From assembly GCA_965217895.1 (NCBI GenBank), contig CBDCJV010000002.1, positions 2,560,001-2,624,000 on the forward strand: DNA of 64,000 bases. The letters run 5' to 3'. Within the stretch, counting starts at the first letter, position 1; each line of letters opens with the position of its first letter. A model generated the notes under the pieces. It was not told the origin of the DNA and made no database searches. It saw only the letters and a list, made by a program, of their open reading frames with translations. This DNA comes from Waterburya sp. (lineage in GTDB: Bacteria; Cyanobacteriota; Cyanobacteriia; Cyanobacteriales; Xenococcaceae). Below are positions 19,028 through 40,684 of this stretch, piece after piece. Position numbers and translations under genes: made by a program.

Positions 19028-19147
19028 TCGATGAGCAGTAAGTAGGGTAGGTAAGACCAAAGATAAGATTCTACAACAAGGCAAGTAAGCTAATTTTGCC
19101 CACCATTTAACGATCACCTATCGGTAATTAGTAATCATCTCCACGTC

Positions 19148-20563: not shown

Positions 20564-20846
20564 CATCAAAGCTAGACTCCAAAATTATCCATAACTTTAT
20601 ACATATTTCACCGCTTCTTGATGCAATTGCCTTTTTTATAAGCCACATTAGTAATGAAGAGAGATTCACTTAGTTAAATACCGCAAGATAAAAGAAAATA
20701 TCAGTATTTATCAGGTAGTCAATTGAATTACTAGACTCTTCAAAATAAATAAAATTATCAAAAAAATTTCAGGTTGCTTTGAACACTACAGGCGATCGCT
20801 AATAACTAATAACTAACAACTAATTACTAATAACTTTTTAAAAATC

Positions 20847-22637: not shown

Positions 22638-22719
22638 TTCCAATGCTCGAAAGTAACAATAAATTTAGTAGAGGTCAGAAGTCAGAAATAAAACTGCCCT
22701 AACTGCTCTAACTGTATAT

Positions 22720-24250: not shown

Positions 24251-25366
24251 ATGACATCTGTTAATACTCAAGTTCAAGCACCTTCTGACATGGATATGTC
24301 TAAAAGAGGTTTGCCCGTTACTATTATTACTGGTTTTCTAGGTAGCGGTAAAACCACATTACTTAACCACATTCTGACCAACCAAGCAGGAATTAAAACC
24401 GCAGTCTTAGTCAATGAATTTGGTGAAATTGGCATTGATAATGAGCTAATTGTTACTACCGATGAAAACATGGTCGAGTTGAATAATGGCTGTATCTGCT
24501 GCACTATTAACGAAGACCTAGTTAACGCCGTTTACAAAATACTCGAACGAGAAGAAAAAATTGATTACCTAGTAGTAGAGACAACTGGATTAGCCGATCC
24601 TCTACCTGTGGCGTTAACCTTTTTAGGAACAGAATTGCGGGACATGACTCGCCTTGATTCGATTGTGACTATGGTAGACTGCGCTAACTTTAGCTTAGAT
24701 CTATTTAATAGCGAAGCTGCACAAAGTCAGATTCAATATGGTGATGTGATTGTTCTGAATAAAACTGACTTGGTAGATGAGGCGGATGTAGATGCTTTAG
24801 AAGTCAGACTCAAAGATATGAAAAAAGATGCGCGTATTCTGCGTACTCAAAACTCTCAAGTATCTCTTCCTCTGATTTTGAGCGTTGGTTTGTTTGAGTC
24901 TGACAAATATTATGAACAGACTGAATCAGCAGAACACGATCACGATCATGACCATGAACACCACCACGATCACGATCATGAACACCACGATCATGACCAC
25001 CATCACGATCACAATCATGAAAATCACGAGCATTCCCATCATTTAGAAAATGACGGCTTTTCCTCCATGTCATTTCAGTTTGATAAACCCTTAGCAATTC
25101 GCAAATTTCAGTACTTTCTAGACAATCAGTTACCAGAAAATATTTTTCGCGCTAAAGGTATTTTGTGGTTTGATGAAAGTCCCAAACGCCATATTTTTCA
25201 CCTTAGCGGTAAGCGATTTACTTTAGAGGACGAAGAATGGCAAGGCGAAAAGAAAAATCGGCTAGTTCTAATTGGTCAAAACCTAGATGAAGAAACCCTC
25301 CGCCAACAAATTAATAATTGTGTATGCCTGCCAAAAAGCGATCGCGGTAAAGGCTTTGGAAAGTAA
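24251..25366 (+). CDS. CobW/COG0523 family GTPase (Zn metallochaperone-like) with His-rich linker
   Basis: GFLGSGKTT, NEFGE, GCICC, ETTG, NKTD, (HD)n tract. Confidence 0.93.
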   Translation: MTSVNTQVQAPSDMDMSKRGLPVTIITGFLGSGKTTLLNHILTNQAGIKTAVLVNEFGEIGIDNELIVTTDENMVELNNGCICCTINEDLVNAVYKILEREEKIDYLVVETTGLADPLPVALTFLGTELRDMTRLDSIVTMVDCANFSLDLFNSEAAQSQIQYGDVIVLNKTDLVDEADVDALEVRLKDMKKDARILRTQNSQVSLPLILSVGLFESDKYYEQTESAEHDHDHDHEHHHDHDHEHHDHDHHHDHNHENHEHSHHLENDGFSSMSFQFDKPLAIRKFQYFLDNQLPENIFRAKGILWFDESPKRHIFHLSGKRFTLEDEEWQGEKKNRLVLIGQNLDEETLRQQINNCVCLPKSDRGKGFGK

Positions 25367-25666
25367 TTAAATGCTTGTTGTTCTATACAACAAGTTAAAT
25401 CAATTTCTTTCTTCAGGATTGACTTAAACTATCTCATCGCACCGCCGAAAGCCAGCCCTGCGTCGGCGGTAAGAGGGCAAACCCCCTAAAGGGTTCAGCA
25501 GTTTGAGCTTATTTTCTATTTTAAAAAGCGACATAATCTATAAATTTATTAGAAAACTCTATTGTTGTTATTAAAGAAAATTTACAAAATAATACAAATC
25601 ACTATTGCAGAAGAGTGCGATCGCGCCAATTATAATCAATTAAATAAATTTAAAAATATTAGGATA

Positions 25667-27016
25667 CTATCTAAATTTAGCAACCTTAATGAATTTAGAA
25701 GCTGTAATTTTGAGATGTCCATCAAAACTTTCAACTGTATAAGACCTCGATTCTTTTTGAGTTGAACCGTCTAGCCAAATATAAGTGTTTTGTCCGATGA
25801 AACTGATTGAATTTTGGGTTTTTGAGGTTATACGTAAGTTTTCTACTGTTACTCTTTGAAATTGACTAAAGAAATTGGAGTTAAATTGATATGCCAATTG
25901 AGGATTGTACAATAATTCAGCTTCGGCAAAACTTTTTTGTGAGAGTAAATCATATAATCTTGTAATAATATTGATTGATTCGCTCTCATTAATATCTTCA
26001 TAACTTTCATTATTTATCGAAGAATTTTGAGATGAATAATTATTAACATCTTTATCGAGGTTATAGACTGTTGGTTCGCCAACTTCTCCACTTCCTACTT
26101 TTTCCTGCATTAAGCTGGCAAATTGTTCGGCTTTTGATTCATTAATAAAGGAAGCAACTTGAATCGAGTGAATTTGTTTTTGCTGGCGATATTTACGAAT
26201 CGCATCTTGGCAATAGTAACTACGAATTGTGCTTAAATTTTCTGGCGTGTCATCAACATAAACTGGATACCAAGTATTAGCACCACCAGGATCGTTATCA
26301 CCACAAGAATCTAAAGGAAAGTCATAATTATCAAAAGTTTTTTCTTGAAGTTGAGTAGATACCTTTGCTGAAGAATTAATTATCTTTTCTGTCTCTGGTA
26401 TATTATCTTGTTCAAAAGTCTCTGAAGTGATAGTGTCAGAAGTTTGTTGTTCGATATTGCTTGCTGTTTGATTTGCTATGTAACCATTTATCACTAAGCC
26501 TAAAAAAATAAAAAATCCGATTGTCCCACCAATAATCCAGGCTTTCCCTGATTCTTTAGAGTTATTAGATGGTGAAATAACTGGAGTAAAAACAGGAGTA
26601 ATAATATCAGAATTTTCTTCCTTATGATTTAAATTACCAACTTGGCTATTTCGATTACTTTCTATCTGTTTGTTAAGCTCAATTTTAGGCTCTACTGGAA
26701 TAGAGGTATCGATTATAGAAGCAGTATGTTGTACTTGTTTTTCTTGTTTGATTTCTCTGCGATCAACTAACTCATTATTATTTAAGATAAACTCGGACTT
26801 GAGAGATTCAAGTTCTTGCTGTTCTTGTTCGAGTTGTTCTATCTGACTTTTGGAACGTTTGAGCTTTTTAATTTCCCTTTCTAACTGTTTCTTTTGCTCG
26901 TTACGTTCAATTGGATCGGAAATATTAGCTTCTAATTCATTTAATTGCTGCTCTAGTAATTTAATATCTCTTTTTATTTTTAAAGCTGACATAATATATG
27001 AGTTTATTAAATTCAA
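25667..27016 (-). CDS. Hypothetical coiled-coil / single-TM protein with two extracytoplasmic domains (SPOR-like, NTF2-like)
   Basis: N-terminal heptads, TM WIIGGTIGFFIFLGLVINGYI, FPLDSCGD...IQVASF...AEQF segment; domain names are tentative. Confidence 0.7.
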   Translation of the reverse strand: MNLINSYIMSALKIKRDIKLLEQQLNELEANISDPIERNEQKKQLEREIKKLKRSKSQIEQLEQEQQELESLKSEFILNNNELVDRREIKQEKQVQHTASIIDTSIPVEPKIELNKQIESNRNSQVGNLNHKEENSDIITPVFTPVISPSNNSKESGKAWIIGGTIGFFIFLGLVINGYIANQTASNIEQQTSDTITSETFEQDNIPETEKIINSSAKVSTQLQEKTFDNYDFPLDSCGDNDPGGANTWYPVYVDDTPENLSTIRSYYCQDAIRKYRQQKQIHSIQVASFINESKAEQFASLMQEKVGSGEVGEPTVYNLDKDVNNYSSQNSSINNESYEDINESESINIITRLYDLLSQKSFAEAELLYNPQLAYQFNSNFFSQFQRVTVENLRITSKTQNSISFIGQNTYIWLDGSTQKESRSYTVESFDGHLKITASKFIKVAKFR

Positions 27017-27098
27017 AACTCTATTATCAGTATTTATCAGCTAGTTGAAAAGGATACAAATCACAGTCAGTAAAGATTGCGATCGCTTTACAAATTCC

Positions 27099-28493
27099 TT
27101 AATCTTTTTGAACGGCATAACATAAGCGTCCAATAGTAGAACCAGACTCATTCATGGAATTAAGAGTAATATTTTTTAGGCTATTCATAAAGTCAGATAA
27201 ATTACTGGTTTTTGAGCCATCACTACCACTATTTAGATTCCACTCACTCCACCAATCAGGTTTTTGTAAATCTTTAGCAGTTACATCAACTTTAAAATAG
27301 TAAATGTTAGATTCAGTCAGATTATTCGGGTTTATAGTTGTAACAAAATTAAGTTGATTATTATCAATTTGCCAATCTTTAAAATTTAAAGCTTTGGCAG
27401 CAGCAGGTGCTTGCTTGAACTGTTGTTTATTAAATTTATCAAATTCACTTACGTCTATGGCTACTTTCAAATCGTTAGGATCGGCTGATAAAGTATGATT
27501 GATTTGCTTTAAAGGTATTTGATATTTTACTTCCAAAGCATCAGCATTTTTATTCTTAATTTCTAATAATTCTATCGGTTGATTGTTCTTTTCTACAGAC
27601 ACATCTCCATTATTTAATAAGCTTGGTGCTGCTAAATCTGATGACAGGTTTAGAGGCGAATTGAGATAGGATACATCGGCAACTAAATTATGTGGTGAAA
27701 AAATTAAAAATTTACTGCGATCGCTCAAGTTTCCTTCTTCTTTGGCTAACTTATCAAAGTAATTCGTAATATCTTGATAGTCGCCGAGAAATAATATGTA
27801 AAATGGTCGATACTGCTTGCTTGTTTTTCCGACCGTATTGTAATTAAACTTTTTATTGGCATCACTGGCAGAATAAACAGTACCATTAAATTCGCTTTTT
27901 ACTGCCCAAATACCTACAGCATAGTTGTTATCTTGACTATTAAAATAATTCTCTTTAATTTTGTTAGCAATTAAATTAACATCACCATCATTTTGTTCTA
28001 AATCTGTAATGATTACCGTCAGGCGATCGCTATTTTTTGGTTTAGTAATCAGAGAACCTAAATCGCTAGAAACAGCAGGGAAAGTAGAATTTGTTCCATC
28101 ATAAAAATCTGACTTGTTAGCTTTACGAAATTCTGAACGAGTTAGTCCTTTAGCTTGATGTTGATAATCTCCAGAACGATAATATTTAACAGTAGATGGA
28201 GAACGCCTACTACTTAAATTTAGAGTACTATCTAATAATTTTAATGCTTGGATATAAGAGCTATTTTCTTGATTTATATAGCCCAACATTGATCCAGAAC
28301 CGTCAATATTAACATCGATAGCTAATGGATTTGTAAGTTCAGCCTGTTGGTCTTTTTGCTCTAATTCACAATGTAAATTAGCATAATCTCCATTGACTGG
28401 CGTTCCTTCTGGCTCTCCTTTAGCAACTGCAACACAGCCAGACAACATACCTACAATAGCCAAATAACTAATATTTCTTTTAAATAAAAACAT
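27099..28493 (-). CDS. Lipoprotein with vWA-like domain
   Basis: Lipobox LSGC (Cys20), MIDAS-like IDGSGSM and VIITD. Confidence 0.75.
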   Translation of the reverse strand: MFLFKRNISYLAIVGMLSGCVAVAKGEPEGTPVNGDYANLHCELEQKDQQAELTNPLAIDVNIDGSGSMLGYINQENSSYIQALKLLDSTLNLSSRRSPSTVKYYRSGDYQHQAKGLTRSEFRKANKSDFYDGTNSTFPAVSSDLGSLITKPKNSDRLTVIITDLEQNDGDVNLIANKIKENYFNSQDNNYAVGIWAVKSEFNGTVYSASDANKKFNYNTVGKTSKQYRPFYILFLGDYQDITNYFDKLAKEEGNLSDRSKFLIFSPHNLVADVSYLNSPLNLSSDLAAPSLLNNGDVSVEKNNQPIELLEIKNKNADALEVKYQIPLKQINHTLSADPNDLKVAIDVSEFDKFNKQQFKQAPAAAKALNFKDWQIDNNQLNFVTTINPNNLTESNIYYFKVDVTAKDLQKPDWWSEWNLNSGSDGSKTSNLSDFMNSLKNITLNSMNESGSTIGRLCYAVQKD

Positions 28494-28628
28494 ACTTGTA
28501 GTTAAAAATAAGTTTTAGCAGTTTAGCTAAATTTCAGGGTAAATACCCATAAACATGATGTTTTCAATCAAAAATTTATGAGTTAAATTGTAATTAACTA
28601 ATATTTATTATGACAATAAGCTAAATAT

Positions 28629-29099
28629 ATGAAATCAGGAGAAATAACTAGACTAATAATCTGTTTGATTATTGGTGCGTTAATAATTTTTCTCGGACAG
28701 CCAAAACTTTATGATTTAAGAATAGTTAGAATTACTGATATCCCCGATCTTAAAGAATGGATTGGTAGCTACTATATGAATCAAGCTGCTATTGTTTTTG
28801 TAATCTCTTTAATTTCGGTAATTTTTTGGTCTATTTCTGCTGTTCGCTCAAAAGCTAACGGCAGTGAATTAAAAACCTGGCAAGGCGTTTGGTATGCACT
28901 TTTATTTGTTAACGTTTTGAGTATTTTTATTGCTATTTATCTGAATAAGGTCAGTGATGATGCCCTACTTTCATCAATATTTTTCTTACTATTTGATGTG
29001 ATTTGGGTTTTTTGGCTAGGAACAGCTTTAAGTTCACCTAATTTATTTATGTATTTACCCCCAGGTTCGGGAACAATACGCCGAGTTTTTGGAGATTAA
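28629..29099 (+). CDS. Hypothetical 4-TM membrane protein
   Basis: Four hydrophobic segments; stop codon 4 bp before the next ATG. Confidence 0.75.
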   Translation: MKSGEITRLIICLIIGALIIFLGQPKLYDLRIVRITDIPDLKEWIGSYYMNQAAIVFVISLISVIFWSISAVRSKANGSELKTWQGVWYALLFVNVLSIFIAIYLNKVSDDALLSSIFFLLFDVIWVFWLGTALSSPNLFMYLPPGSGTIRRVFGD

Positions 29100-29103
29100 A
29101 TTA

Positions 29104-30591
29104 ATGACTATATATCTAGTTGGTATTGGTGGCAGTGGGGCAAAATGTGTAGAGTCAGTAGTGCATTTAGCATCAGTAGGATTGTTTCCTCAAGAGCCAA
29201 TCAAAGTATTATTTGTCGATGCCGACGAAAGTAACGGCAATGTTGAAAGAGCGAGAAATAGTTTAAATATTCAAACTGAATGCCAGCGAATATTATCGGC
29301 AATTGATAAACAACAGTGTCCTTGGATGCAGACATCAATTAAATCTTTCGATCTCTGGTCGCCATTTGCCAAAAATAGTTTAAATAAAGAATTAAGTGCG
29401 TTTTTTAATTACAACAACATTAAACAAAGTGAGCCAGCCTTAGCTAATCTCTTTGATGTTCTCTATACAGACACAGAAAAACAAGAAAATTTAGATGTAG
29501 GTTTTCGTGGTAGACCTGCTATCGGTGCTGCGGTGATGAGTCAAGTAGACCTCAATCGCCTAGATGAAGAACCCTGGGGGACTTTTATCGAACAAATTAG
29601 AGCCGATGTCAACGAAGGTAAACAACCAAAAGTGTTGCTGTGTGGCTCGATCTTTGGCGGTACTGGGGCATCGGGACTACCTACTATTGCTCGCTTGATT
29701 GCTAATAAATTAAACGAGATTAAGATTAGAGAACGAGTCAAGATTGGTTCTGTTTTTATTCTGCCTTATTTTGGCTTTACTGCTCCTGCGGGAGAAAGTG
29801 AAAACGGCATTTATGCTCAGTCGGATAAGTTTTTGCTCAACACAGAAGCAGCACTGCGTTACTATGTCACCCAAGCTCAAGGCATTTTTGATACCGTCTA
29901 TTTATTAGGCAACGAGAATTTAGCTAGGGTTAACTTTAGCATTGGTAAAAATACCCAGTGCAATCAGCCTCATTTTATTGAATTATATGCTGGTCTGGCT
30001 GCCAGACATTTCTTAACGGAAACTCATCCCCAAGAAGAAACAATTGTCTTGTTATCTCGTTCACGTTCGCAATATATCAACTGGGATGACATTCCCGATG
30101 GCAATAATGTCCAAAAGATTTTAGGCAGTACCACTAGATTTGCTTATACCTGGCTGGCAGAAATTGCTCCAGAATTAACCAATGCTAAACAAGAAGGATT
30201 TAAAAGCTACATTAGGTTCGCTCCTTGGATGAGTAGATTTTACGATACCGATCCTAAAAAACCGCTTCAGTTTGACAGCAGCCAGCAGCAAAATGCGATC
30301 GTCATAATAAACAACTGGTGCAAAGACTATTTACGCTGGTTACAAGAAATTCATCAATGCGAAAGCGACAGAATTGAACTATTTAAACACAGCATTTTTG
30401 CCCAAGTCGATCAGCTTCAGGGAACTAAATTACAAGATTTGATCCTGGGAGATAACCGCGATGCCAAAACCAGACAACGCAACGATGAACCAACCAGAAT
30501 TAAAAATAATCTTCATCCCAAAAATATTCAAGGCAATAATAACGGCACGGTGGGATTAGCTCAAGCTGTATATCAGGCTTGTCAGCTTTAG
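29104..30591 (+). CDS. Divergent tubulin/FtsZ-like GTPase (Tubulin_2 / FtsZ-like)
   Basis: GIGGSG, FVDAD, GFRGRPAIG, signature GSIFGGTGASG, LPYF, DTVYLLGN; GGAG RBS at 29091. Confidence 0.85.
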   Translation: MTIYLVGIGGSGAKCVESVVHLASVGLFPQEPIKVLFVDADESNGNVERARNSLNIQTECQRILSAIDKQQCPWMQTSIKSFDLWSPFAKNSLNKELSAFFNYNNIKQSEPALANLFDVLYTDTEKQENLDVGFRGRPAIGAAVMSQVDLNRLDEEPWGTFIEQIRADVNEGKQPKVLLCGSIFGGTGASGLPTIARLIANKLNEIKIRERVKIGSVFILPYFGFTAPAGESENGIYAQSDKFLLNTEAALRYYVTQAQGIFDTVYLLGNENLARVNFSIGKNTQCNQPHFIELYAGLAARHFLTETHPQEETIVLLSRSRSQYINWDDIPDGNNVQKILGSTTRFAYTWLAEIAPELTNAKQEGFKSYIRFAPWMSRFYDTDPKKPLQFDSSQQQNAIVIINNWCKDYLRWLQEIHQCESDRIELFKHSIFAQVDQLQGTKLQDLILGDNRDAKTRQRNDEPTRIKNNLHPKNIQGNNNGTVGLAQAVYQACQL

Positions 30592-30660
30592 TAGGGGCGA
30601 TTCGCGAATCGCCCCTACGATTTTCAACTTCTGTACGGGCGAACGGCCGTTCGCCCCTAC
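30591..30660. repeat. Two tandem GTAG-type REP palindromes
   Basis: GTAGGGGCGATTCGCGAATCGCCCCTAC (30591-30618) and GTACGGGCGAACGGCCGTTCGCCCCTAC (30633-30660). Confidence 0.85.
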
Positions 30661-30711
30661 GACTTTTGACTTTTGATGTTATGCCCTTGTGGTGCTTTTA
30701 ACTTAAAAACT

Positions 30712-33700
30712 ATGGCTAATTTAATATTACCGAAACTAAAAACGGGTACAGATGTCAGACCTCCAGAAAGGGAAGGAATTTGGACAAGCTTAGAATCAAG
30801 ATCGGCGTTTCAGAATGTCGCAACCAGTCTCGATTATCAAGCTTCGGGAGAAACTAAAAGCGTAAGTTCCGTCCCGACAATGTGGGCGCGTCCTCTATCG
30901 ATAGAGATGGCGTTACACAATAAAAACTATCCGATTCGTCGGGAAATGATTGCCCAGTGGCAGGGAATGTTAGCTGCCGTGGCTTTAGCCGAAGTAAGAC
31001 GATTTCCTTTAACCGCTCAATTAGTCGATTTGAGCAAATTACGCCAACAGCAGCCTTTTAGTAGAGCTTTATACCAACTGTTACCTCATCCCGTTAATGC
31101 TCTTTACAGTCTCGACGGTAATAATCCCTGGCAGGAAGTTTATGTTTTCCTCTGGAATAATCAACCTGTGGGTATGACTTCCCCTAGTACTATAGTTGCC
31201 AACTCCGAAGAAGGAAATTGGTCTGGTTTACCCTGGTGGAATGAGGAAACAAAATGTTTAGGATCTCCCCTGACTGGTAATCACCTCAACAAGAATGAAA
31301 AAGCTTTATTATGGCGGTGGTTAGAAAATTTAAGTACTCATCTCCATAATCAAAATTATCAAGGTCAACCCAGAGCGATCGATGAAATTAGCGGTTTAAT
31401 TAATCAATTTCGCGATAGTTTGGGTTCTTATCCCGAACAAGCTGTCAGCTTAAGCGATAATCCGCAGTATTTCGGCGTATCTCTCAATCGTGGTGTCCTT
31501 AACGGCATTAACAAGCCTGCTAAAGCCGAGGCGCAACCATCCAATGTGCGCTTGATTGGTAGTCAAGGTTTAAGCCAAGTACAAGACTTACTGATCCTCG
31601 ATCCGCAGATAGCCGAAGCTTGGGGAAAATCACCCCAAAATATTTGGCTACATCAAGACCAAACTTTAGCATCACTAAAAATCGAAGATTTAAAGTCAGG
31701 TAAAGTCATCTGGCAAAATGTACGCTGGATTGAATCAAAGGATTTATTTTTACCAGAATTAACCTTTATTGATATCGAAGATGCCTTACCTGGTGGTTAT
31801 TTACCTCCAGAAACTCAACCTTTAATTTTCAACAAACGCAGAATCACCCCATTACTTCCCCTAAATCAAATCCTGCTGGAATATTTCACTCCTGAAGATC
31901 TGATCCGTCACCTCAATATAACTCCCCTTAATAGTAGCGATGGGACATTTATCAGAATTGAGTTAGATTTACCTCTTTCGGGCAATAATAACCAATCTCA
32001 AAATTATCGCATCTACAAAGATTATCCACTGAAAGAAGAAAATGCTCTAGCTGACGGCGTACCTATCTTAGAAGTGTGGCCCCATTTCCAAGCTGAAGGT
32101 TGGCAAGAGTATTACGGCTTCTACTACGATGCAGGTTTGGGAGAAGATACCTTTCACGTCAGTTTCCCCCAAGCCAAAGAACCTCATGTCTTTCAGGAAG
32201 GTCAAGGCAATTATCAACTAACGCGACTAGACAAGTTTCCTTCTCATATTCAGTGTCAAAATCGCAACAGACAACCACTTGGTTTAATTCCTTTAAAAAC
32301 ACCTCAAAAGATTTCATTGGCTGATAATTGGCGAGTTGGGGTAGACTTCGGTACTTCTTTCACCAATATCTATGTCAATAGAAGAGATAACGTCGAACCT
32401 TTATCTCTTAAGAGTTTACATTTAAAGGTAACGGAAGCAGATATCGAAACTCGTATTCCTGTACTTTTTGAATACTTCGTCCCAGAAAAATTTATTCCTC
32501 TTGATAAACCTTTACCTTTTTCCAGTGTTCTCACTACTAGAGGTAAAACTAACAGTCCCGAAGGAAGAGAACGGGCTTTATTTGATGGTCGGATATATAA
32601 TCCAGACCTTAATTTTCAACCAGATAAAAACTGGATCGAAACCGATCTCAAATGGGATAATTTTGTTCCCAATCGACTGTTTTTAGAACATTTAGCACTG
32701 CACGTTTCCGCCCTGGCTGCTAGCGAAGGAATCACAGAGATTCAATGGTCTTTATCTTATCCTTCCGCTTTTTCCAGGGGAGATCACACTAGATATATGA
32801 GCACTTGGCGCGAATTAACTGAAAAACTGCAAGAAAAAACTGGCATTATTCAAAGTTGTCCAGAACAAAAGAATTTAGAGTGTTTTCGTACTGAAAGTCT
32901 AGCAGTTGCTCAATACTTTTCTGACCAGGAAGGATACGATTTAATTAATAGTGTTTGTATCGATATTGGTGGCGGGACATCAGACATCTCAATATGGGAA
33001 AATAATCAATTAGTTCATCAATGTTCGGTTAGATTAGCAGGTCGTCAGTTATTTTCGCAATTTATAGAATTAAATCCCGACTTTATACGTAACAGTTTAA
33101 AACTCAAACACAGTGGTTACGAACGTTTAAAAAAAGACAAGCTATATGCCAAGTTAGATGTTTTACTCCGTAACAATGGAGAAACATGGCTAAAGGAAAT
33201 AGTTAAAACTATCGATAAAGATGAAAAATCTCAAGGATTGATTCGCTTAATTGCCTTGGGAACGGCTGGACTATACTATTACATCGGTATTTTATTAGGT
33301 GCATTGTATTCGGAAGAAAAATATACTACAGATGAAATTACTCCTGTTTATGTTGGTGGTAATGCTTCTCGATTCTTAAATTGGCTAGATATCGGAGGCA
33401 AGTTTGACAAACATTCTCAAGTCAATGAATTATTTAGCCATATGTTAAGTAAGGGTTCTGGCTTTAAAGATACTGAAGAAGTCACTCGTTTAAGTCAAAA
33501 GCCAAAAGATGAGGTAGCCTGTGGATTGGTTCTTACTGATACCAAGCTCAAAGGCTTAAATAAAAAACAAAAAGATCCTTTAATTGCAGGAGAAAATTGT
33601 GTAATTAATGGAAAAGAAATTTCTTACGAAAATCGCCTAGAATTTGAGGATAGAATTGAAAGTTTTGAAATTCCTGAATTGCATCAGCTATTTGCTTTTG

Positions 33701-33954
33701 TTGATGAGTTTAATTCAGCTATTAAGGAATTAGAACTAGAAGGAATTAAACCAATGTCTCAATTTCAAAGAGGTAAAGGCTTAGAACCTAAATATAAAGA
33801 CAAACTCTACAGTAGTACCAAAAGAGAACTAAAGAATATACTACTCAAAGAATTTGGACAAGGTGATTCTGAAAATATTCGTCCTGATGCTCCTTTTATT
33901 TTAGGATTGAAAGCTTTGTTACTTGCCTTGGGTAGAGAATGGGCAGAGCATTAG
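30712..33954 (+). CDS. Large protein with C-terminal actin/Hsp70-fold (ASKHA) ATPase domain
   Basis: GVDFGTSFT, ESLAVA, IDIGGGTSD, VGGNASR, PKDEVACG in the correct order; ~540-aa unknown N-terminal region; likely start is ATG 30712. Confidence 0.8.
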   Translation: MANLILPKLKTGTDVRPPEREGIWTSLESRSAFQNVATSLDYQASGETKSVSSVPTMWARPLSIEMALHNKNYPIRREMIAQWQGMLAAVALAEVRRFPLTAQLVDLSKLRQQQPFSRALYQLLPHPVNALYSLDGNNPWQEVYVFLWNNQPVGMTSPSTIVANSEEGNWSGLPWWNEETKCLGSPLTGNHLNKNEKALLWRWLENLSTHLHNQNYQGQPRAIDEISGLINQFRDSLGSYPEQAVSLSDNPQYFGVSLNRGVLNGINKPAKAEAQPSNVRLIGSQGLSQVQDLLILDPQIAEAWGKSPQNIWLHQDQTLASLKIEDLKSGKVIWQNVRWIESKDLFLPELTFIDIEDALPGGYLPPETQPLIFNKRRITPLLPLNQILLEYFTPEDLIRHLNITPLNSSDGTFIRIELDLPLSGNNNQSQNYRIYKDYPLKEENALADGVPILEVWPHFQAEGWQEYYGFYYDAGLGEDTFHVSFPQAKEPHVFQEGQGNYQLTRLDKFPSHIQCQNRNRQPLGLIPLKTPQKISLADNWRVGVDFGTSFTNIYVNRRDNVEPLSLKSLHLKVTEADIETRIPVLFEYFVPEKFIPLDKPLPFSSVLTTRGKTNSPEGRERALFDGRIYNPDLNFQPDKNWIETDLKWDNFVPNRLFLEHLALHVSALAASEGITEIQWSLSYPSAFSRGDHTRYMSTWRELTEKLQEKTGIIQSCPEQKNLECFRTESLAVAQYFSDQEGYDLINSVCIDIGGGTSDISIWENNQLVHQCSVRLAGRQLFSQFIELNPDFIRNSLKLKHSGYERLKKDKLYAKLDVLLRNNGETWLKEIVKTIDKDEKSQGLIRLIALGTAGLYYYIGILLGALYSEEKYTTDEITPVYVGGNASRFLNWLDIGGKFDKHSQVNELFSHMLSKGSGFKDTEEVTRLSQKPKDEVACGLVLTDTKLKGLNKKQKDPLIAGENCVINGKEISYENRLEFEDRIESFEIPELHQLFAFVDEFNSAIKELELEGIKPMSQFQRGKGLEPKYKDKLYSSTKRELKNILLKEFGQGDSENIRPDAPFILGLKALLLALGREWAEH

Positions 33955-34055
33955 TAGTAATTAATTATATTTGGCTTAAAGAGTTATGTAAATAAATCAA
34001 TTTTTTTGAAATAACTCTTTGAACATTATTTTTTTGAAATAAATAAATTAATCCT

Positions 34056-34964
34056 ATGGCTTCTTTTGATAATGTACAAGTACATAACTGTCCTGCTTGT
34101 GGAACTAAATATAAGGCTCAACGGGATGATTATATTTGTTGTGAATGTAAGTATCCTGTTAATTCAACAGCAGATTCAAAAGTTATTGATTGGTCGAAAA
34201 AAACTATTCAACAAATACAAGAACAAAATCAAATAAATCAAAAATTAACAGAAGACTTAGACAATCAAAATAAGAAAGAAAGTAATAACTTTAACATTTT
34301 TCAACAAACTATAGGCAGAATATCTCAACCTATAAGTAATTTGGCTCAGGAAATCAATAGTTTAACTCAAGAAATTAAAACCTTAACACAACAACAATAT
34401 AATTCAAATCTCAAGCAAAATAATAATTCTAAAATAGAAGGAAATTTAGAAGCATCACAACAAAATGATAATTCAGATATCGACGATTCTAAAGACTGTC
34501 TAGAAAAAAATAAAAGTGATAATTCGCATTCAGAAAATAATATAGACAATGATTCATTACCAGAAGCATCAAATGATAATAATGCTCTAAATAATATTCC
34601 TCAATTTTTAAGAGATTATAATCATGACAAAAATTTACTACTTGGCAAAGCGATCGCGACAGTTTCAGAAACAGCAGAAAGTATAAGTAATCGTCGCGAT
34701 GCAAGAGATATTCCAGTCCAGTTAGAAGTAAAAGCATCGAGGGGAAGCTATTGGATTATTAATGAAGAAGGTATTAATTATTTAGTTCCTACAATCGATA
34801 TTAAATTTAACGAGTTTAACCTTGACACACTTCAAGCCTTATTTGAATACGATAATTCTTGCAACAACTCTTATGAGTTTCAACTAATTAAACCAGCTAA
34901 AGTATCTCAAATATCATCAAAAACATGGCAAATTGAGAAAAAAGGCAAGCTATATTTTTATTAA
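34056..34964 (+). CDS. Zn-ribbon / coiled-coil protein with one copy of an unnamed C-terminal domain
   Basis: CPAC...CCEC, heptads, C-terminal G.YW..YLVP..LFE..LIKPAKV..WQ..KG domain. Confidence 0.75.
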   Translation: MASFDNVQVHNCPACGTKYKAQRDDYICCECKYPVNSTADSKVIDWSKKTIQQIQEQNQINQKLTEDLDNQNKKESNNFNIFQQTIGRISQPISNLAQEINSLTQEIKTLTQQQYNSNLKQNNNSKIEGNLEASQQNDNSDIDDSKDCLEKNKSDNSHSENNIDNDSLPEASNDNNALNNIPQFLRDYNHDKNLLLGKAIATVSETAESISNRRDARDIPVQLEVKASRGSYWIINEEGINYLVPTIDIKFNEFNLDTLQALFEYDNSCNNSYEFQLIKPAKVSQISSKTWQIEKKGKLYFY

Positions 34965-35020
34965 AGACTAAGAATTAAGCATAATTTAATCAATAATTTG
35001 AAAACAATTAACGAAATCTC

Positions 35021-36802
35021 ATGGCTACAAGTGATAAAAACACAGTTGTCACTCAAGGATTTGTCGATAAACTAATTGACAAAATAGGTAAAATCCTAAA
35101 AGAACAACATACTCTTGTTGAACGAGATGAACAACAAGCAGAATCAATAGAATTATTATTAGAAAAAGTTAGTTCTATTGAAAAAAACTTTGAGGAATTA
35201 ACTAAATCTTTAGCTAAAGGTAGCTATCCGCTGAAGTTAGCGCGATCTATAAAAGTAACACCATCTTCCATAAAACCTCATATCTTACCTGTCGATCTGA
35301 CTAAAGCTCAATTGATTGCCACCTATAACGAATTAGTAGCCGTGTTATCTGGTTATATTATCCCCGTTACCCTTACGCCAGAAAGTTATCGAGGTTCAAA
35401 TTCAGATGGAATAATTCTAGAAACAACTATCAAAGGAAATTATTGGGCGATCGCAACTCTAGAAAACAAACAGCATAAATATTGGCTTGTACCTAATAAT
35501 AATATCAGTTTTAATATTCACAAATTAAAAACAGTTGAAAATTTATTCCAGCTACAAGGAGATTATAATTCATCCGAATGCGAGTTTATCTTACAAGAAC
35601 CCGCAATTCTTTCTTTATTGCCGAATAACAAACAATGGAAGCTACTTCAGCCTGGTATTCTATTTTTTGGTAGCATAAAATCTGCATCACCTCAATTAAA
35701 ACAGCCTGAAAATGTAGTTGACGATAAGCAATCTAAAATTAATCAACAGATTTTGTCTAGCTTGACAGCATTTCAAACAAAAGTAAAGCTACTAGATAAT
35801 AAAATAACGCAGTTTGAAATTCAATCGGAAATATCGGAAAAAGTTTATCAACGAGATAAACAAGATTGGCTTACAGAAAAAAAAATTCTCAATGAACAAA
35901 TACAAAAAACTGATGTCTTACAATCTCAGCTAAATAACTTGATTAATCAAAGCGATCATACTGAAAATTTCAACTCAGACAATAGTGTTCAACAGTTTAC
36001 CGAATTATACAATCAACATAAAAATTCATTTAACGAATTTGTAATAGCTACAGTTATAGAGACACAAGAAAGTATGGAAAATCGTTTAGCAGGTCGTTCT
36101 GAAACAGTTTTTCTTTCAAGTATAAGTAAAGGTAACTATTGGATAGTAGAAGAAAACAACAATTCTTATTTAGTTCCTCATGCAAAAATTAGCATCAATG
36201 AACACAATAAACGATATACTATTGAAAATCTTTTTGAGTGTAATGAATCAAGCTCAGGTGATTATAGTTTTCAATTAATTCAGCCAGCAAAGGTTTTAAA
36301 ACTCAATTCGGAATTATGGCAACTTGAGAGAAAAGGCAAAATAGAGTTCATATCAGATAATCACAACAAAATAGACAATACAGAGATTAAAGATAGTCAG
36401 GATACAAAAATAGATTTAAAAACTAAAATATCTCGATTTAGACAAGACTATACTCAAGACATTAAGCTAATCTCTGATCTGATCGTGGCTAAAGTTACAA
36501 TTAGTGTAGAAACTCTATTACAACTTGTAATCTATAAACCCGATCTAATTAAATTAGAAAATAATGCTGATGGTAAGTATTGGATTATTGATTACTTAGG
36601 TGTTTATTGCTTGATACCAAGCGAAATACATCAGATAACTAACGCTACAGAAAAATCCTTAAACGATGCCAAAATCTTATTCGATCTAGTTGGATACTAT
36701 CCTCAATACTCTAGCTATCATTTAATTAAACCTGCAATAGTAACCAAGCTCTCTACGAATCAATGGAAATTGGAAGAAAAAGGTAAATTTAATTTTTCGT
36801 AG
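35021..36802 (+). CDS. Coiled-coil protein with three copies of the same unnamed domain
   Basis: Three repeats of G.YW / L.P / LF / PA / W.L...G. Confidence 0.78.
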   Translation: MATSDKNTVVTQGFVDKLIDKIGKILKEQHTLVERDEQQAESIELLLEKVSSIEKNFEELTKSLAKGSYPLKLARSIKVTPSSIKPHILPVDLTKAQLIATYNELVAVLSGYIIPVTLTPESYRGSNSDGIILETTIKGNYWAIATLENKQHKYWLVPNNNISFNIHKLKTVENLFQLQGDYNSSECEFILQEPAILSLLPNNKQWKLLQPGILFFGSIKSASPQLKQPENVVDDKQSKINQQILSSLTAFQTKVKLLDNKITQFEIQSEISEKVYQRDKQDWLTEKKILNEQIQKTDVLQSQLNNLINQSDHTENFNSDNSVQQFTELYNQHKNSFNEFVIATVIETQESMENRLAGRSETVFLSSISKGNYWIVEENNNSYLVPHAKISINEHNKRYTIENLFECNESSSGDYSFQLIQPAKVLKLNSELWQLERKGKIEFISDNHNKIDNTEIKDSQDTKIDLKTKISRFRQDYTQDIKLISDLIVAKVTISVETLLQLVIYKPDLIKLENNADGKYWIIDYLGVYCLIPSEIHQITNATEKSLNDAKILFDLVGYYPQYSSYHLIKPAIVTKLSTNQWKLEEKGKFNFS

Positions 36803-36936: not shown

Positions 36937-37572
36937 ATGATTTATCTTGATTCGGCTTTAATTGAAGAAGCTCAAGCAGCAGTGGCAATGGGCTGGGTAA
37001 AGGGAATTACAACCAATCCAACTCTACTAAATAAAAGCGATCTAGCTCCTGAAGACTGTCTTCAACAATTGACGGCTATCAGTCCTGGAGAACTATATTA
37101 TCAGCTATGTGCCACAGATTTTGAGGCAATGGTTACAGAAGCAAAAAAAGCCCAAGCAATTATTGGCGATAAGCTGGTCTTAAAAATTCCTGCTACTCCA
37201 TTAGGATTTCAGGTTACAGCTTATTTATCATCAGCAATAAATTGTTCGGTAACAGCTATTTATAGTCCTGCCCAAGCAGCAGTTGCTGCCCAGGCGGGAG
37301 CAAAATATGCGATCGCCTACGTAAACCGTGCTACCAGGCTTTTAGGAGATGGTTTAGCACTAGTCAGAGAAATGTCTGATGTACTCAAACATAGCAATAC
37401 TGAAATTCTGGCAGCCAGCCTTAAGTCGCCTGAAGAAGCTGCTGCTACCCTGCAAGCAGGAGCGCATCACCTCACCGTTCCTATGTCAATCTTAGAGGCA
37501 ATGGCAACACATGATTTATCAGATCAGACCGTAACTGAGTTTTTAGATAAGGGCATTGGCATTAGTATTTAA
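36937..37572 (+). CDS. Transaldolase / fructose-6-phosphate aldolase family protein
   Basis: YLDSA, GITTNPTL, LKIP, ILAAS. Confidence 0.88.
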   Translation: MIYLDSALIEEAQAAVAMGWVKGITTNPTLLNKSDLAPEDCLQQLTAISPGELYYQLCATDFEAMVTEAKKAQAIIGDKLVLKIPATPLGFQVTAYLSSAINCSVTAIYSPAQAAVAAQAGAKYAIAYVNRATRLLGDGLALVREMSDVLKHSNTEILAASLKSPEEAAATLQAGAHHLTVPMSILEAMATHDLSDQTVTEFLDKGIGISI

Positions 37573-37720: not shown

Positions 37721-38248
37721 TTATTTAGATAAGGCGATCGCCTGTGCTATCTTATCAAACATATTTGTTACGTCCTGTCCTGTCTTTGCCGAAGTTAGAT
37801 AGGCAGCAATTACTTGTTCACAATCAAAAGAGCTATATGCTTGGCTTAGTTTGTCTAGCTTTTCTTGAGCGACTAAATCAGCCTTGTTTAAACTTATTGC
37901 TATAATGGTTTGAGGATTTACCTCGGAAAAAAGGTTAATATGATTATTTAAATTATTGAGGGTATCTGAGCGAGTCAAATCTCCCACAATAATTGCGGCA
38001 CTTGCACCTTTAAGATAGCTGGGGGTAATTGACTTGAACTTAGTATTACCTTCTAAATCCCAGACCAAAAGATTAATTTGATCGATCTGTGAGTCAGTTT
38101 TGATATTTACTGATTTGCGAGATACCTTAACTCCAACCGTAGACAAATATTGATCGCTAAACTTATCTTCAACAAAGCGTCGAATTAAGCTGGTTTTACC
38201 AACATTAAAATCTCCTATTAAACAAATTTTCTTGGTAATTACTGACAT
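37721..38248 (-). CDS. Rab/Ras-like small GTPase
   Basis: G1 GDFNVGKTS, G2 YLSTVG, G3 WDLEG, G4 NKAD, G5 TSAK. Confidence 0.92.
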   Translation of the reverse strand: MSVITKKICLIGDFNVGKTSLIRRFVEDKFSDQYLSTVGVKVSRKSVNIKTDSQIDQINLLVWDLEGNTKFKSITPSYLKGASAAIIVGDLTRSDTLNNLNNHINLFSEVNPQTIIAISLNKADLVAQEKLDKLSQAYSSFDCEQVIAAYLTSAKTGQDVTNMFDKIAQAIALSK

Positions 38249-38251
38249 TAG

Positions 38252-40585: not shown

Positions 40586-40684
40586 AAGCAATTTTACAAT
40601 ATCTGAAGCTTAAAACAGTTAGAGCAGTTTTCTTTGACTACTAACGACTAACTACTAACTACCAACTACCAACTACTAAGATTG

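Follow-up and report, generated by a model that had tools for sequence, protein, structure and literature searches.

A patchily distributed cyanobacterial cassette with a tubulin-like GTPase, an actin-fold ATPase and a variable array of rep-domain proteins

The 64,000-nt stretch of Waterburya sp. DNA analyzed here (the window) carries an accessory, mobile, cyanobacterial cassette of five families: a lipoprotein, a four-transmembrane (4-TM) protein, a tubulin-like GTPase (Tub), an actin/MreB/Hsp70-fold ATPase (ASKHA) and a variable array of rep-domain proteins. We tentatively interpret it as an envelope-linked, NTP-driven scaffold for conflict or defence, stopping just short of calling this reading probable. 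Among the three roles offered by the initial annotation, namely envelope remodelling, specialised division and conflict or anti-phage activity, it is the best supported, because iSTAND-MoxR-vWA trios, fusion proteins, plasmid copies and the pairing of a constant core with a variable array all point that way. Membrane remodelling is the main rival, and a housekeeping function is less likely.

Results

The cassette lies in a variable island at a synteny break

Seven genes, rather than the six initially counted, occupy 25667-36802, and every ORF was present at the coordinates given here. As had been described, they form two divergent units sharing a 135-bp spacer (28494..28628), between cobW (24251-25366) and a TAL/FSA gene (36937-37572, 211 aa). 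Comparison by blastn with cassette-less congeners delimited a variable island of about 11.3 kb (25407..36706). On the cobW side, homology to the genomes G020 and G023 stops at window position 25406/25372, and on the TAL side homology to G020 starts at 36707. In both genomes, neither of which has the cassette, cobW and TAL are megabases apart; the island is located at a synteny break. What is left of rep593 in G020 is 95 nt next to TAL. The GC content is 0.28-0.33 at both island ends and about 0.40 in the flanks. The dN/dS values of all genes, measured against two congeners, were 0.04-0.33, indicating purifying selection and therefore real genes, not chance ORFs.

A tubulin-like GTPase gene adjoins the gene of an actin-fold ATPase

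The plus-strand operon begins with TM156 (28629..29099, 156 aa), a 4-TM membrane protein with hydrophobic segments at residues 2-28, 47-74, 84-109 and 110-136. Its gene ends 4 nt before the start of Tub and is upstream of Tub in 59/62 loci; dN/dS is 0.04-0.07 and identity to congeners 96-97%. Tub (29104..30591, plus strand, 495 aa) has its longest ORF from 29089, with ortholog alignment favoring the start at 29104. The tubulin-like assignment was borne out, since Tub scores 29.0-29.1 bits with Pfam Tubulin_2 (PF13809), whose cut-off is 27, and 37 of 38 relatives match that family at E<=1e-3 (7/38 also match PF00091). The motifs GxGGxG (G9, G10, G12) and GGTGASG (G185-G191) are invariant across the 38 sequences, dN/dS is 0.04, and identity to congeners reaches 97-98%. 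Tub is directly upstream of the ASKHA gene in 61/63 loci.

The ASKHA gene (30712..33954, plus strand, 1080 aa; longest ORF from 30673, likely start at 30712 by ortholog alignment) encodes a conserved but unstructured segment (residues 1-55), an alpha/beta region (~56-340), a beta-rich region (~340-535) and an actin/MreB/Hsp70-fold ATPase (537-943) with a helical C-terminal part. The proposed ASKHA identity holds by fold. Foldseek matched the AF2 model (pLDDT 86, pTM 0.75) to MreB and the DnaK nucleotide-binding domain (NBD) with E values of 4e-8 to 8e-7, and comparison of residues 537-943 by VIA gave Z scores of 18.8 for MreB, 17.0 for FtsA and 16.4 each for ParM and PilM. ParM-type actins appear at Z 15-16, cyanobacterial CorM is also among the closest matches, and VIA places MreB and FtsA above Hsp70-type NBDs. 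Across 40 sequences, the phosphate-1 motif DFGTS, the phosphate-2 motif DxGGGTSD and GGNxSR show little or no variation. No ASKHA family member (0/40) matches Pfam HSP70 at E<=1. Identity to congeners is 81%.

The minus-strand unit encodes a vWA-like lipoprotein and a genus-level passenger

The first minus-strand gene, lipo464 (27099..28493), encodes a 464-aa protein with a signal peptide, the lipobox LSGC and a MIDAS-like DGSGSM motif. Seven orthologs all preserve DGSGSM and TDL unchanged. The initial description as a vWA lipoprotein thus stands for the lipoprotein signals and the motif; the protein matched no Pfam or PDB profile, and its hhalign alignments to vWA profiles covered just 17-18 columns, with a probability of 2-5%. 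We regard the vWA identity as motif-level only (DxSxS) and the protein as vWA-like with a putative fold. Its gene is divergently upstream of the operon in 40/54 loci with enough DNA and accompanies Tub and ASKHA in 12/41 relatives; identity to congeners is 87-88%.

CC_TM449 (25667..27016, minus strand, 449 aa), with a charged N-terminus, one transmembrane segment (157-181) and a C-terminal globular part, had been taken for a component of the system, which its distribution contradicts. It is present only in one same-genus locus (75% identity); the 78 wider loci lack it or have fragments of it. It has no Pfam family and the highest dN/dS in the island (0.33). Direct repeats of about 80 nt border it at 25544-25624 and 27006-27086, as expected for a later insertion. 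CC_TM449 is a genus-level island passenger, outside the core.

Rep domains are predicted to dock on the ASKHA ATPase

Two rep genes follow the ASKHA gene on the plus strand. The product of rep302 (34056..34964) has CxxC...CxxC at its N-terminus and, beyond a linker rich in N, Q and S, a single rep domain at the C-terminus (aa 183-302, nt 34602-34961); rep593 (35021..36802) encodes three rep domains (nt 35309-35671, 35993-36352 and 36434-36799) with K/Q/S-rich linkers between them. The domain is about 120 aa long, and the confident model of the rep302 copy (pLDDT 91.5) matched no solved fold (best Z 2.5). Rep genes change fast around a constant core. Their number per locus is 0-6 (in the 38 loci whose downstream DNA extends 9 kb or more), with at least one downstream of ASKHA in 56/58 loci; rep593 is 73-84% identical to its counterparts in congeners, the rep302 slot only about 40% or less, and the dN/dS of rep593 (0.26-0.31) is second in the island to that of CC_TM449. 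In the genome G019 two rep domains are almost the same, although 30-45% identity is usual, suggesting recent conversion or duplication. Rep proteins bear coiled-coil or low-complexity segments and several rep domains, and 4 of 113 end in a C-terminal WD40 propeller.

Complex prediction of the rep302 rep domain with ASKHA residues 281-1080 gave ipSAE values of 0.72, 0.74 and 0.70, against 0.00 for the best control. In calibration that mark was reached by 116/157 solved complexes and 2/215 mismatched pairs, which holds here only roughly because our own alignments were used; the score expresses model confidence in a predicted docking. At least 89% of contacts were common to the runs, and partner pLDDT was at least 82. 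The predicted surface on ASKHA comprises an insert of the ATPase domain and the beta-rich region, where E587, F589 and P591 are invariant and T580 and R581 nearly so; the rep side has the consensus VxxTxES, so that both faces are conserved. The rep domain is therefore predicted by modelling to dock on the ASKHA protein, and this predicted docking and the rep-domain model are new here.

The cassette is patchy, mobile and occasionally linked to conflict genes

That the genes belong together is supported by their co-occurrence: of 41 related genomes, 11 have all four families searched (Tub, ASKHA, lipoprotein and rep domain) and 26 have none, one has three of the four in a fragmented assembly, and one has a decayed remnant only. 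Synteny extends over 78 loci taken from a scan of species-representative genomes, with full-length ASKHA in 66. The cassette is patchy even within the genus, with Tub in 8/24 congeners (one match being a 58-aa fragment and another a probably spurious one of 21 aa) and in 4/16 other genera. Most copies are chromosomal with unrelated flanks, and relatives occur on five cyanobacterial plasmids, two of them typed mobilizable. No ASKHA gene was found in phages, which we counted as neutral.

In 3/78 loci (L031, L044 and L067), a full trio of iSTAND, AAA_5/MoxR and VWA_CoxE genes, known from the MoxR-vWA-iSTAND ternary systems of Kaur et al. (2020), is directly upstream of the ASKHA gene and co-oriented with it, in two of the three between Tub and ASKHA. 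The ASKHA proteins of these loci have a common N-terminal extension of ~240 aa. One relative (P0403) is a Trypsin_2+VMAP-M1+ASKHA fusion in a single gene call, trypsin and VMAP-M1 being likewise features of the ternary systems. In another, a protein kinase is fused to ASKHA residues 277-1078, and trypsin and WD40 genes adjoin. These trios and fusions are new here; the window's own cassette, unlike the ternary systems, lacks genes for MoxR, iSTAND and a CoxE-type vWA. The link thus extends to 3/78 loci and two fusion proteins and is one of guilt by association, because the available text of Kaur et al. (2020, PMC7159879) presents the MoxR-vWA ternary systems and the tubulin/HSP70 systems, too, as no more than computational predictions.

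The expectation that the cassette matches no characterized system was upheld: PADLOC defence models returned only coiled-coil noise, NCBIfam returned nothing, and literature searches found no experimental work on such a cassette. No enzymatic effector (nuclease, protease, TIR) was recognisable in the standard cassette, this copy included, which, like the lack of a real PADLOC match, counts against the defence reading. WD40, kinase and pentapeptide genes also lie near cassettes; such genes are abundant in cyanobacteria and therefore weigh little.

Discussion

Proposed mechanism and rival explanations

We infer a trans-envelope machine in which the lipoprotein and the 4-TM protein would anchor the assembly to the envelope, and the GTPase and ATPase, given their near-invariant adjacency and intact nucleotide motifs, would form a cytoplasmic NTP-driven assembly. 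Modelling predicts that the ATPase recruits the variable proteins via their ~120-aa rep domains, at insert 575-597 of the ATPase domain and the adjoining beta-rich region. Where a protein has 2-4 rep domains, it could bridge several ATPase molecules and so build a lattice, and the fast-changing coiled-coil, low-complexity or WD40 parts of the rep proteins may serve as sensors or assembly elements. The output would most likely be conflict or defence, by containment of an invader or by arrest or death of the infected cell through a macromolecular assemblage, a mode of action proposed for tubulin and HSP70 components in the available text of Kaur et al. (2020, PMC7159879).

The same components could instead build an accessory cytoskeletal or membrane-remodelling machine of the kind that Makarova and Koonin proposed for FtsZl1 operons, with Tub and ASKHA filaments on a 4-TM anchor shaping or moving membrane, thylakoid or envelope structures, and the coiled-coil rep proteins serving as cross-links in the structure. 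Tubulin- and actin-fold NTPases with intact motifs, fold matches to the filament formers MreB, FtsA, ParM and CorM, the membrane and exported partners, the multiple docking domains and coiled-coil or low-complexity segments of the rep proteins, the lack of an enzymatic effector and the strong purifying selection on the core genes all suit such a machine. Patchiness within one genus, plasmid copies, decayed remnants, rapid turnover of the rep array, the nested trios with the trypsin/VMAP-M1 and kinase fusions, and a canonical FtsZ elsewhere in the genome argue against it, and we consider it rather unlikely.

A specialised chaperone or assembly system, whose clients, folded or loaded by the Hsp70-like ATPase, would be the rep proteins or the lipoprotein, with the rep domain as client tag, is very unlikely. 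Foldseek does rate Hsp70 NBDs and actins as similarly good matches, the complex model places the rep domain in contact with the ATPase, and related predicted systems have HSP70 with GrpE and DnaJ in the available text of Kaur et al. (PMC7159879). Against these stand the lack of Pfam HSP70 matches in the ASKHA family, the higher VIA ranks of MreB and FtsA, the lack of a J-domain or GrpE gene in the cassette, and a predicted docking on the insert and beta-rich region rather than on a substrate-binding domain. Least likely of all is TubZ- or ParM-like maintenance of a mobile element, with the NTPases positioning carrier DNA and the rep proteins as adaptors. The copies are mostly chromosomal with unrelated flanks, an exported lipoprotein with a 4-TM protein fits no known partition system, none of the components matched a DNA-binding family, and the island showed no array of centromere-like repeats; the five plasmids, the ParM-type fold matches and the N-terminal CxxC...CxxC of rep302, which could be a zinc ribbon, are what speaks for it.

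Comparison with known systems

The FtsZ-FtsA, MreB-RodZ, PilM-PilN and ParM-ParR pairs offer examples of actin-fold ATPases with partners docked at the membrane. As with FtsZ-FtsA, a tubulin-fold GTPase gene here adjoins an actin-fold ATPase gene beside membrane proteins, FtsA and PilM are among the best ASKHA fold matches, and modelling places the partner on an insert of the ATPase domain. Because a separate canonical FtsZ is encoded elsewhere in the genome, Tub-ASKHA is not the division pair. Unlike FtsA-type actins, ASKHA has ~535 extra N-terminal residues, and its cassette is accessory and mobile.

The initial annotation had pointed to the FtsZl1 operons, whose architecture proved different. 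In the available parts of Makarova and Koonin (2010, PMC2875224), their membrane-remodelling role is a prediction. FtsZl1 proteins have ~760-1210 aa (763-1208 in supplement 5), with a coiled coil and a helical C-terminal domain; the cyanobacterial operons listed are vWA-FtsZl1-B7-MotB-like, and two listed operons (amb2961, Cagg_1315) have a giant DnaK- or GrpE-annotated gene. The cassette resembles them in a divergent Tubulin_2-type GTPase adjoining further membrane proteins and a vWA or vWA-like protein that is exported or membrane-bound, and in a patchy distribution beside canonical FtsZ. It differs in the size of Tub (495 aa) and in its lipoprotein, unrecognised by profile where the FtsZl1 operon vWA is the profile-recognisable COG2304, and the cyanobacterial operons listed have no 4-TM gene, 1080-aa ASKHA or rep array.

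The closer published frame, which the initial annotation had not named, is the GTPase-centric conflict systems with DO-GTPase/GAP1-N2, which have tubulin+vWA or HSP70+GrpE themes in the available text of Kaur, Burroughs, Iyer and Aravind (2020, PMC7159879). As far as that text goes, they and the cassette alike combine tubulin- and HSP70-family NTPases with membrane and vWA components and add non-enzymatic modules that vary greatly to a constant core. Both are enriched in bacteria that are multicellular or colonial, and for both an action via multimeric assemblies is proposed. The DO-GTPases and GAP1 that define those systems are both absent from the cassette. The tubulin and HSP70 themes are described there as separate neighbourhoods, which were reported from Firmicutes and Actinobacteria or were predominant there, whereas here Tub and a giant actin-like ASKHA occur together, in cyanobacteria, and the rep domain replaces FNIII repeats.

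Noncoding features of the island

The 135-bp spacer has one promoter-like site on the minus strand (28616-28587, 10/12 matches), which is not evidence of function because the region has fewer such sites than shuffled sequence (33 vs 42.9). The Tub-ASKHA spacer contains two tandem GC-rich palindromic hairpins (30591..30660, plus strand) in tandem 42-nt units, with a fold z-score of -5.06. They are REP-like and genome-dispersed, their pattern occurring at 18 genomic sites and at 0 in the reversed control.

Gene organization of the island

Seven open reading frames, one more than in the initial annotation, lie between cobW (24251-25366) and a transaldolase/FSA gene encoding 211 aa (TAL, 36937-37572). 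They are arranged in two divergent units separated by a 135-bp spacer, as had been described. The minus strand carries CC_TM449 (25667-27016), encoding a coiled-coil protein with one hydrophobic segment, and lipo464 (27099-28493), whose product has a signal peptide and the lipobox LSGC. The plus strand carries TM156 (28629-29099; four hydrophobic segments), the tubulin-like GTPase gene Tub (ORF 29089-30591), the giant actin-like ATPase gene ASKHA (ORF 30673-33954), and two genes for proteins with a shared repeat domain, rep302 (34056-34964; one rep domain) and rep593 (35021-36802; three rep domains). Ortholog alignment placed the likely start of Tub at 29104 (495 aa), 4 nt past the TM156 stop, and that of ASKHA at 30712 (1080 aa). 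Purifying selection was detected on all seven genes (dN/dS 0.04-0.33 against two congeners).

Comparison with cassette-free congeners set the limits of the island at about 25407-36706. In the genomes of these congeners, cobW and TAL are megabases apart, and in one related genome, G020, the last ~95 nt of rep593 persist beside TAL (G020:C1:1277416-1277514). The coiled-coil/TM protein had been counted as part of the system, but the conservation of CC_TM449 does not track that of the other cassette genes. Because it is flanked by direct repeats of ~80 nt (25544-25624 and 27006-27086; 72-74% identity, 1462 nt apart), both terminating in GCGATCGC, we treated CC_TM449 as a later insertion; the repeat arrangement suggests that it entered downstream of the lipoprotein gene. 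Hereafter, the cassette means lipo464, TM156, Tub, ASKHA, and the variable rep array.

A promoter and terminator scan gave signals no higher than those in shuffled sequences, and an Rfam search returned zero matches. The Tub-ASKHA spacer, 120 nt here, contains two tandem GC-rich palindromic hairpins at 30591-30660. Their pattern recurs across the genome as a dispersed family (18 sites, against none in a reversed control; fold z-score -5.06), possibly a REP-like element that affects mRNA stability or attenuation within the operon.

Tubulin-like GTPase and actin-like ATPase

The assignment of Tub as a tubulin/FtsZ-like GTPase was borne out by Pfam Tubulin_2 (PF13809), which matched residues 5-230 over profile positions 2-215 of 356 (29.0-29.1 bits, gathering cut-off 27, E 8e-7). 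The match ends around residue 230 and does not extend to where a T7 loop and a C-terminal domain, the elements required for hydrolysis coupled to polymerisation, would be expected. PF13809 was recovered at E<=1e-3 in 37 of 38 relatives, and 7 of the 38 also matched PF00091. In the 38 sequences, G9, G10, and G12 of the T1 loop (GxGGxG) and G185-G186-T187-G188-A189-x-G191 of the T4 loop (GGGTG[ST]G-like) were invariant; the loop names follow the accessible text of Makarova and Koonin, 2010 (PMC2875224). A single-sequence search of the PDB with Tub gave no significant match, and a profile search found no tubulin or FtsZ chain. A canonical FtsZ is encoded elsewhere in the genome. Tub relatives are 486-528 aa long, except for two shorter entries of 418 and 424 aa, which are probably partial.

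An AF2 model of ASKHA was built from a 40-sequence alignment (pLDDT 86, pTM 0.75). In this model, residues 537-943 are predicted to adopt the actin/MreB/FtsA/ParM/PilM/Hsp70-NBD fold. The fold-comparison search VIA aligned this region with MreB at Z 18.8 (rmsd 3.7, 284 residues aligned), followed by FtsA (17.0), ParM (16.4), PilM (16.4), and Ssz1 (16.2), and Foldseek matches to the model had E values of 4e-8 to 8e-7. The phosphate-1 (D545-F-G547-T-S), phosphate-2 (D751-x-G-G-G-T-S-D758), and adenosine (G882-G-N-x-S-R887) motifs showed full conservation or conservation of 90% or more across the 40 sequences, truncated paralogs included. The predicted fold and these conserved nucleotide motifs agree with the earlier description of a ~1080-aa ASKHA ATPase.

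A single-sequence PDB search with ASKHA gave no significant match. Hsp70/DnaK proper was ruled out, as the Pfam HSP70 model (PF00012) matched 0 of 40 members at E<=1. SrfB, a lead from the ESM Atlas with a score of 0.83, under the 0.9 mark, was rejected likewise, with PF07520 matching 0/40 at E<=1. Pfam matches at the phosphate-2 region were confined to sub-threshold FtsA (37/40) and MreB (34/40). Outside the ATPase domain, residues 1-55 are conserved and were modelled without structure, and residues 56-535 are predicted to form alpha/beta and beta-rich regions; whole-model fold searches were filled by ATPase-domain matches.

The lipoprotein

The description of lipo464 as a vWA lipoprotein held for the lipoprotein signal and lipobox and for the motif DGSGSM, and found no counterpart in vWA profiles. 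The MIDAS motif DxSxS (D64-G-S66-G-S68-M) and a TDL segment including T163-D164 were invariant in seven orthologs. Pfam matched nothing in the seven members at E<=10, and the lipo464 profile had zero matches in the PDB. When compared by hhalign with a profile of five vWA domains from its own genome and, as a 50-sequence profile, with a profile of 32 vWA domains, lipo464 aligned over 17-18 columns with a probability of 2-5%, covering the MIDAS strand alone. Because the profile tests reached only this strand, we use 'vWA-like' as a motif-level statement. The ESM Atlas returned solely unnamed clusters, mostly from Bacteroidota.

The rep domain and its predicted docking on the ATPase

As first noticed, the two downstream proteins are repeat-domain proteins: rep302 and rep593 share a domain of ~120 aa, present in one and three copies, respectively. 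An AF2 model of the domain from 43 copies (pLDDT 91.5, pTM 0.85) resembled no fold in the PDB by Foldseek (best E 0.49), and VIA over 48,161 chains gave at best a non-significant Z of 2.5, to a GrpE chain; models without a match typically reach 7-8. The rep-domain profile matched 1276 clusters at E<=1e-3, 827 of them at E<=1e-10, among 1.84 billion protein representatives. Pfam found enzymatic domains in none of the best 113 of 150 listed matches; four of the 113 have C-terminal WD40 propellers, and the other Pfam matches were just coiled-coil-type noise.

A second, N-truncated ASKHA paralog was found in 3 of the 9 loci collected first and in 6 of 78 loci. Such paralogs are without the first ~260-350 residues and are usually followed by more rep genes. 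Because these paralogs retain residues ~280-1080 and are nonetheless located ahead of rep genes, this part of ASKHA was chosen for complex prediction with the rep302 domain. The predicted complexes had ipSAE values of 0.72, 0.74, and 0.70, against 0.00 for the best control, with at least 89% of contacts in common among runs and a partner pLDDT of at least 82. Of 157 solved complexes, 116 attained this ipSAE mark, as did 2 of 215 mismatched pairs; the calibration is only rough because the alignments were self-supplied. The predicted interface involves ASKHA residues 575-597 with 355-357, 448-449, 474-475, 497-499, 632-633, and 821-822, and rep residues 22-34, 45-49, and 68-76, and on both partners these residues are some of the best conserved in the respective family. 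These predictions support docking of rep proteins on the ASKHA ATPase. Both the rep domain itself and the putative interface, in which rep 22-34 and 68-76 meet ASKHA 575-597 and which is amenable to mutation, offer concrete handles.

Conservation, variability, and mobility of the cassette

Neighbourhood conservation, which the initial annotation had named as a check, was evident. Gene order was preserved in nine loci from relatives, with Tub identity as low as 37%. Scanning species-representative genomes with the ASKHA alignment gave 273 matching stretches, and the best 78 loci, by their titles 76 cyanobacterial and 2 'uncultured bacterium', were examined. ASKHA was full-length in 66/78 loci, Tub adjoined ASKHA in 61/63, TM156 was found in 59/62, and at least one rep gene lay downstream in 56/58. 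The lipoprotein gene was divergent and upstream in 40 of 54 loci, elsewhere in the locus in one, and absent from the locus in 13. Rep genes numbered 0-6 per locus where 9 kb or more of downstream sequence was available (38 loci).

Among 41 related genomes, Tub, ASKHA, the lipoprotein, and the rep domain occurred together in 11, and 26 had none of them. A fragmented assembly (G033) had three of the four families, and G007 had rep domains alone. G020, which has no Tub, retained a decayed cassette with just a C-terminal 171-aa fragment of ASKHA and rep genes, one broken by TGA (G020:C1:4770209-4774765), and a Tub match of 21 aa in G022 is probably spurious.

Sequence beyond the cassette varied among loci, with no conservation of the flanks; the sole large flank cluster was a single-linkage mixture of WD40, pentapeptide, kinase, and AAA_35 proteins. 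Relatives were found on five cyanobacterial plasmids, and culturable strains with plasmid-borne copies include Gloeothece PCC 7822 and Picosynechococcus PCC 7003, 73109, and 8807. ASKHA relatives were absent from the phage collection searched. The cassette is a conserved accessory element and is mobile.

Its genes differ in divergence from the related genomes G019 and G017. Identity was 97-98% for Tub, 96-97% for TM156, 87-88% for lipo464, 81% for ASKHA, and 73-84% for rep593, and fell to ~40% or less at the rep302 slot, which is occupied by different genes. Against congeners, dS was 0.72-0.83 for ASKHA vs 0.28-0.39 for Tub, an excess that suggests allele exchange within the operon and not mere relaxed selection. 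In G019, two rep domains in adjacent genes are near-identical (L020:3640-3999 and L020:5007-5366; usual identity 30-45%), a sign of recent duplication or gene conversion within the array.

Comparison with known and predicted systems

Tub does not fit the FtsZl1 family of Makarova and Koonin, 2010: it has 495 aa and is not a ~1000-aa coiled-coil protein. According to the accessible parts of that work (PMC2875224), FtsZl1 proteins combine an FtsZ-like domain at the N-terminus, a long coiled-coil, and a helical C-terminal domain, and those among the supplement 5 entries are 763-1208 aa long. The FtsZl1 operons, as described there, resemble the cassette in Pfam family and in vWA theme; the cyanobacterial FtsZl1 operons differ in their partner genes, which encode COG2304 vWA, B7, and MotB-like proteins. 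The FtsZl1 partner is a COG2304-type vWA protein; the lipoprotein adjacent to Tub has the invariant DGSGSM, and the profile searches gave no vWA match for it. DO-GTPase/GAP1 systems, as outlined in the parts of Kaur et al., 2020 available to us, were rejected too, as both defining components are absent here: none of the seven island proteins matched a P-loop GTPase (DO-GTPases are of the TRAFAC P-loop type) or GAP1 in a Pfam copy that may lack GAP1 models.

PADLOC-DB 2.0, consulted for an already known system, matched none of its defence models: six of the seven proteins had no matches, and rep302 gave weak ones to LmuB, JetC, DruC, and ZorA (E 3e-5 to 0.06), limited to its low-complexity/coiled-coil part, that is, coiled-coil noise. 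NCBIfam matched nothing in the seven proteins. A literature search found no experimental study of the cassette, although bioRxiv supplements and the source data of Kaur et al. might list such loci.

Because the FtsZl1 operons differ in architecture and the DO-GTPase/GAP1 components are absent, we place the cassette, as a new variant, in the predicted tubulin/HSP70/vWA class. It is set apart by the short Tub, a giant actin-like ATPase near-always paired with it, the 4-TM protein, the MIDAS-motif lipoprotein, and a predicted docking domain without a detectable fold relative.

Links to predicted conflict systems and possible function

In two of the 78 loci (L044, L067), genes for an iSTAND protein, an AAA_5/MoxR-type ATPase, and VWA_CoxE lie between Tub and an N-extended ASKHA; in L031, the same trio and an extended ASKHA are followed by a complete standard cassette. 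The N-terminal extensions in the three loci are ~240 aa, helical, and homologous (35-64% identity). One ASKHA relative, P0403, is a fusion of Trypsin_2, VMAP-M1, and full ASKHA, known from a single gene call; a metagenome scan for its contig gave 13 loci, none with its first 312 residues. In another locus (L071), a protein kinase takes the place of the first ~276 residues of ASKHA, and the neighbours encode a second kinase, a trypsin, and a trypsin-TPR-WD40 protein. Such partners are hallmarks of MoxR-vWA ternary systems, a computational prediction in the accessible text of Kaur et al., 2020 (PMC7159879) that the same group restated, again as a computational prediction, in what is available of a 2026 preprint. 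Our literature search likewise found no experiments on these ternary systems.

The initial annotation proved largely right, and the genes form a system. We tentatively regard an envelope-linked, NTP-driven scaffold for conflict or defence as the most likely one. The main rival is an accessory cytoskeleton for membrane remodelling, which we consider unlikely. The cytoskeleton has two great engines, NTPases of the tubulin fold and of the actin fold. A conserved, mobile bacterial cassette that joined both with envelope proteins and an exchangeable set of adaptors would represent a novel device of cell biology.

If the cassette serves defence, the 'assembly as effector' idea for tubulin/HSP70 conflict systems would have its first tested case, and the cassette would link immunity to the evolution of the cytoskeleton in multicellular or colonial bacteria. 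A somewhat doubtful proposal is that it is a new prokaryotic immune machine, with a composite tubulin-actin cytoskeleton as the working part and the rep domain as a socket. An envelope signal would pass through the lipoprotein and the 4-TM protein and cause the GTPase to assemble together with the giant ATPase. The rep domain, with its putative new fold, would be a universal socket on the ATPase, which would thereby load polymorphic, rapidly exchanged sensor and cross-linker proteins, and the resulting lattice would cage the invader or shut down the cell. The nested MoxR-vWA-iSTAND trios may be optional add-ons that set the threshold.

Neighbouring genes and divergent copies

Just upstream of cobW, genes at 20847-24081 encode a 596-aa fusion of a response-regulator receiver to an HlyD-type membrane-fusion protein and a CHAT (caspase-like) protein of 453 aa. 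On the other side, the minus strand at 37721-40591 carries a Ras/Roc small GTPase gene (175 aa, 37721-38248), directly downstream of that for a 779-aa BON+OmpA protein. The pair resembles the GTPase and OmpA partners in the described FtsZl1 operons; it was rejected as part of the system, since neither G019 nor G017 has it beside the cassette. The Ras/Roc gene also falls outside the island.

In Phormidium sp. OSCR (L067), the rep array is directly followed by a gene (19099-20868) whose 589-aa product ends in a HicA toxin domain. In several loci (L093:969-6712, L037:3922-7797, and L030:4196-7945), genes for AAA_35 (STAND-like) and large WD40 proteins separate the lipoprotein gene from TM156. The copy in Trichodesmium erythraeum IMS101 (L029, NC_008312.1; 6462-13243) is probably pseudogenised: inserted ORFs cut TM156 in two, ASKHA is broken into ORFs of 706 and 382 aa, and the lipoprotein gene is found beyond the rep array, at its far end. 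A divergent cassette on a plasmid of Picosynechococcus sp. PCC 7003 (L099, 5618-16144; 29% ASKHA identity) has all genes co-directional and adjoins a plasmid-borne F0F1 ATP synthase operon; the annotation of the genes downstream of it names prefoldin-domain and TM2-domain proteins.
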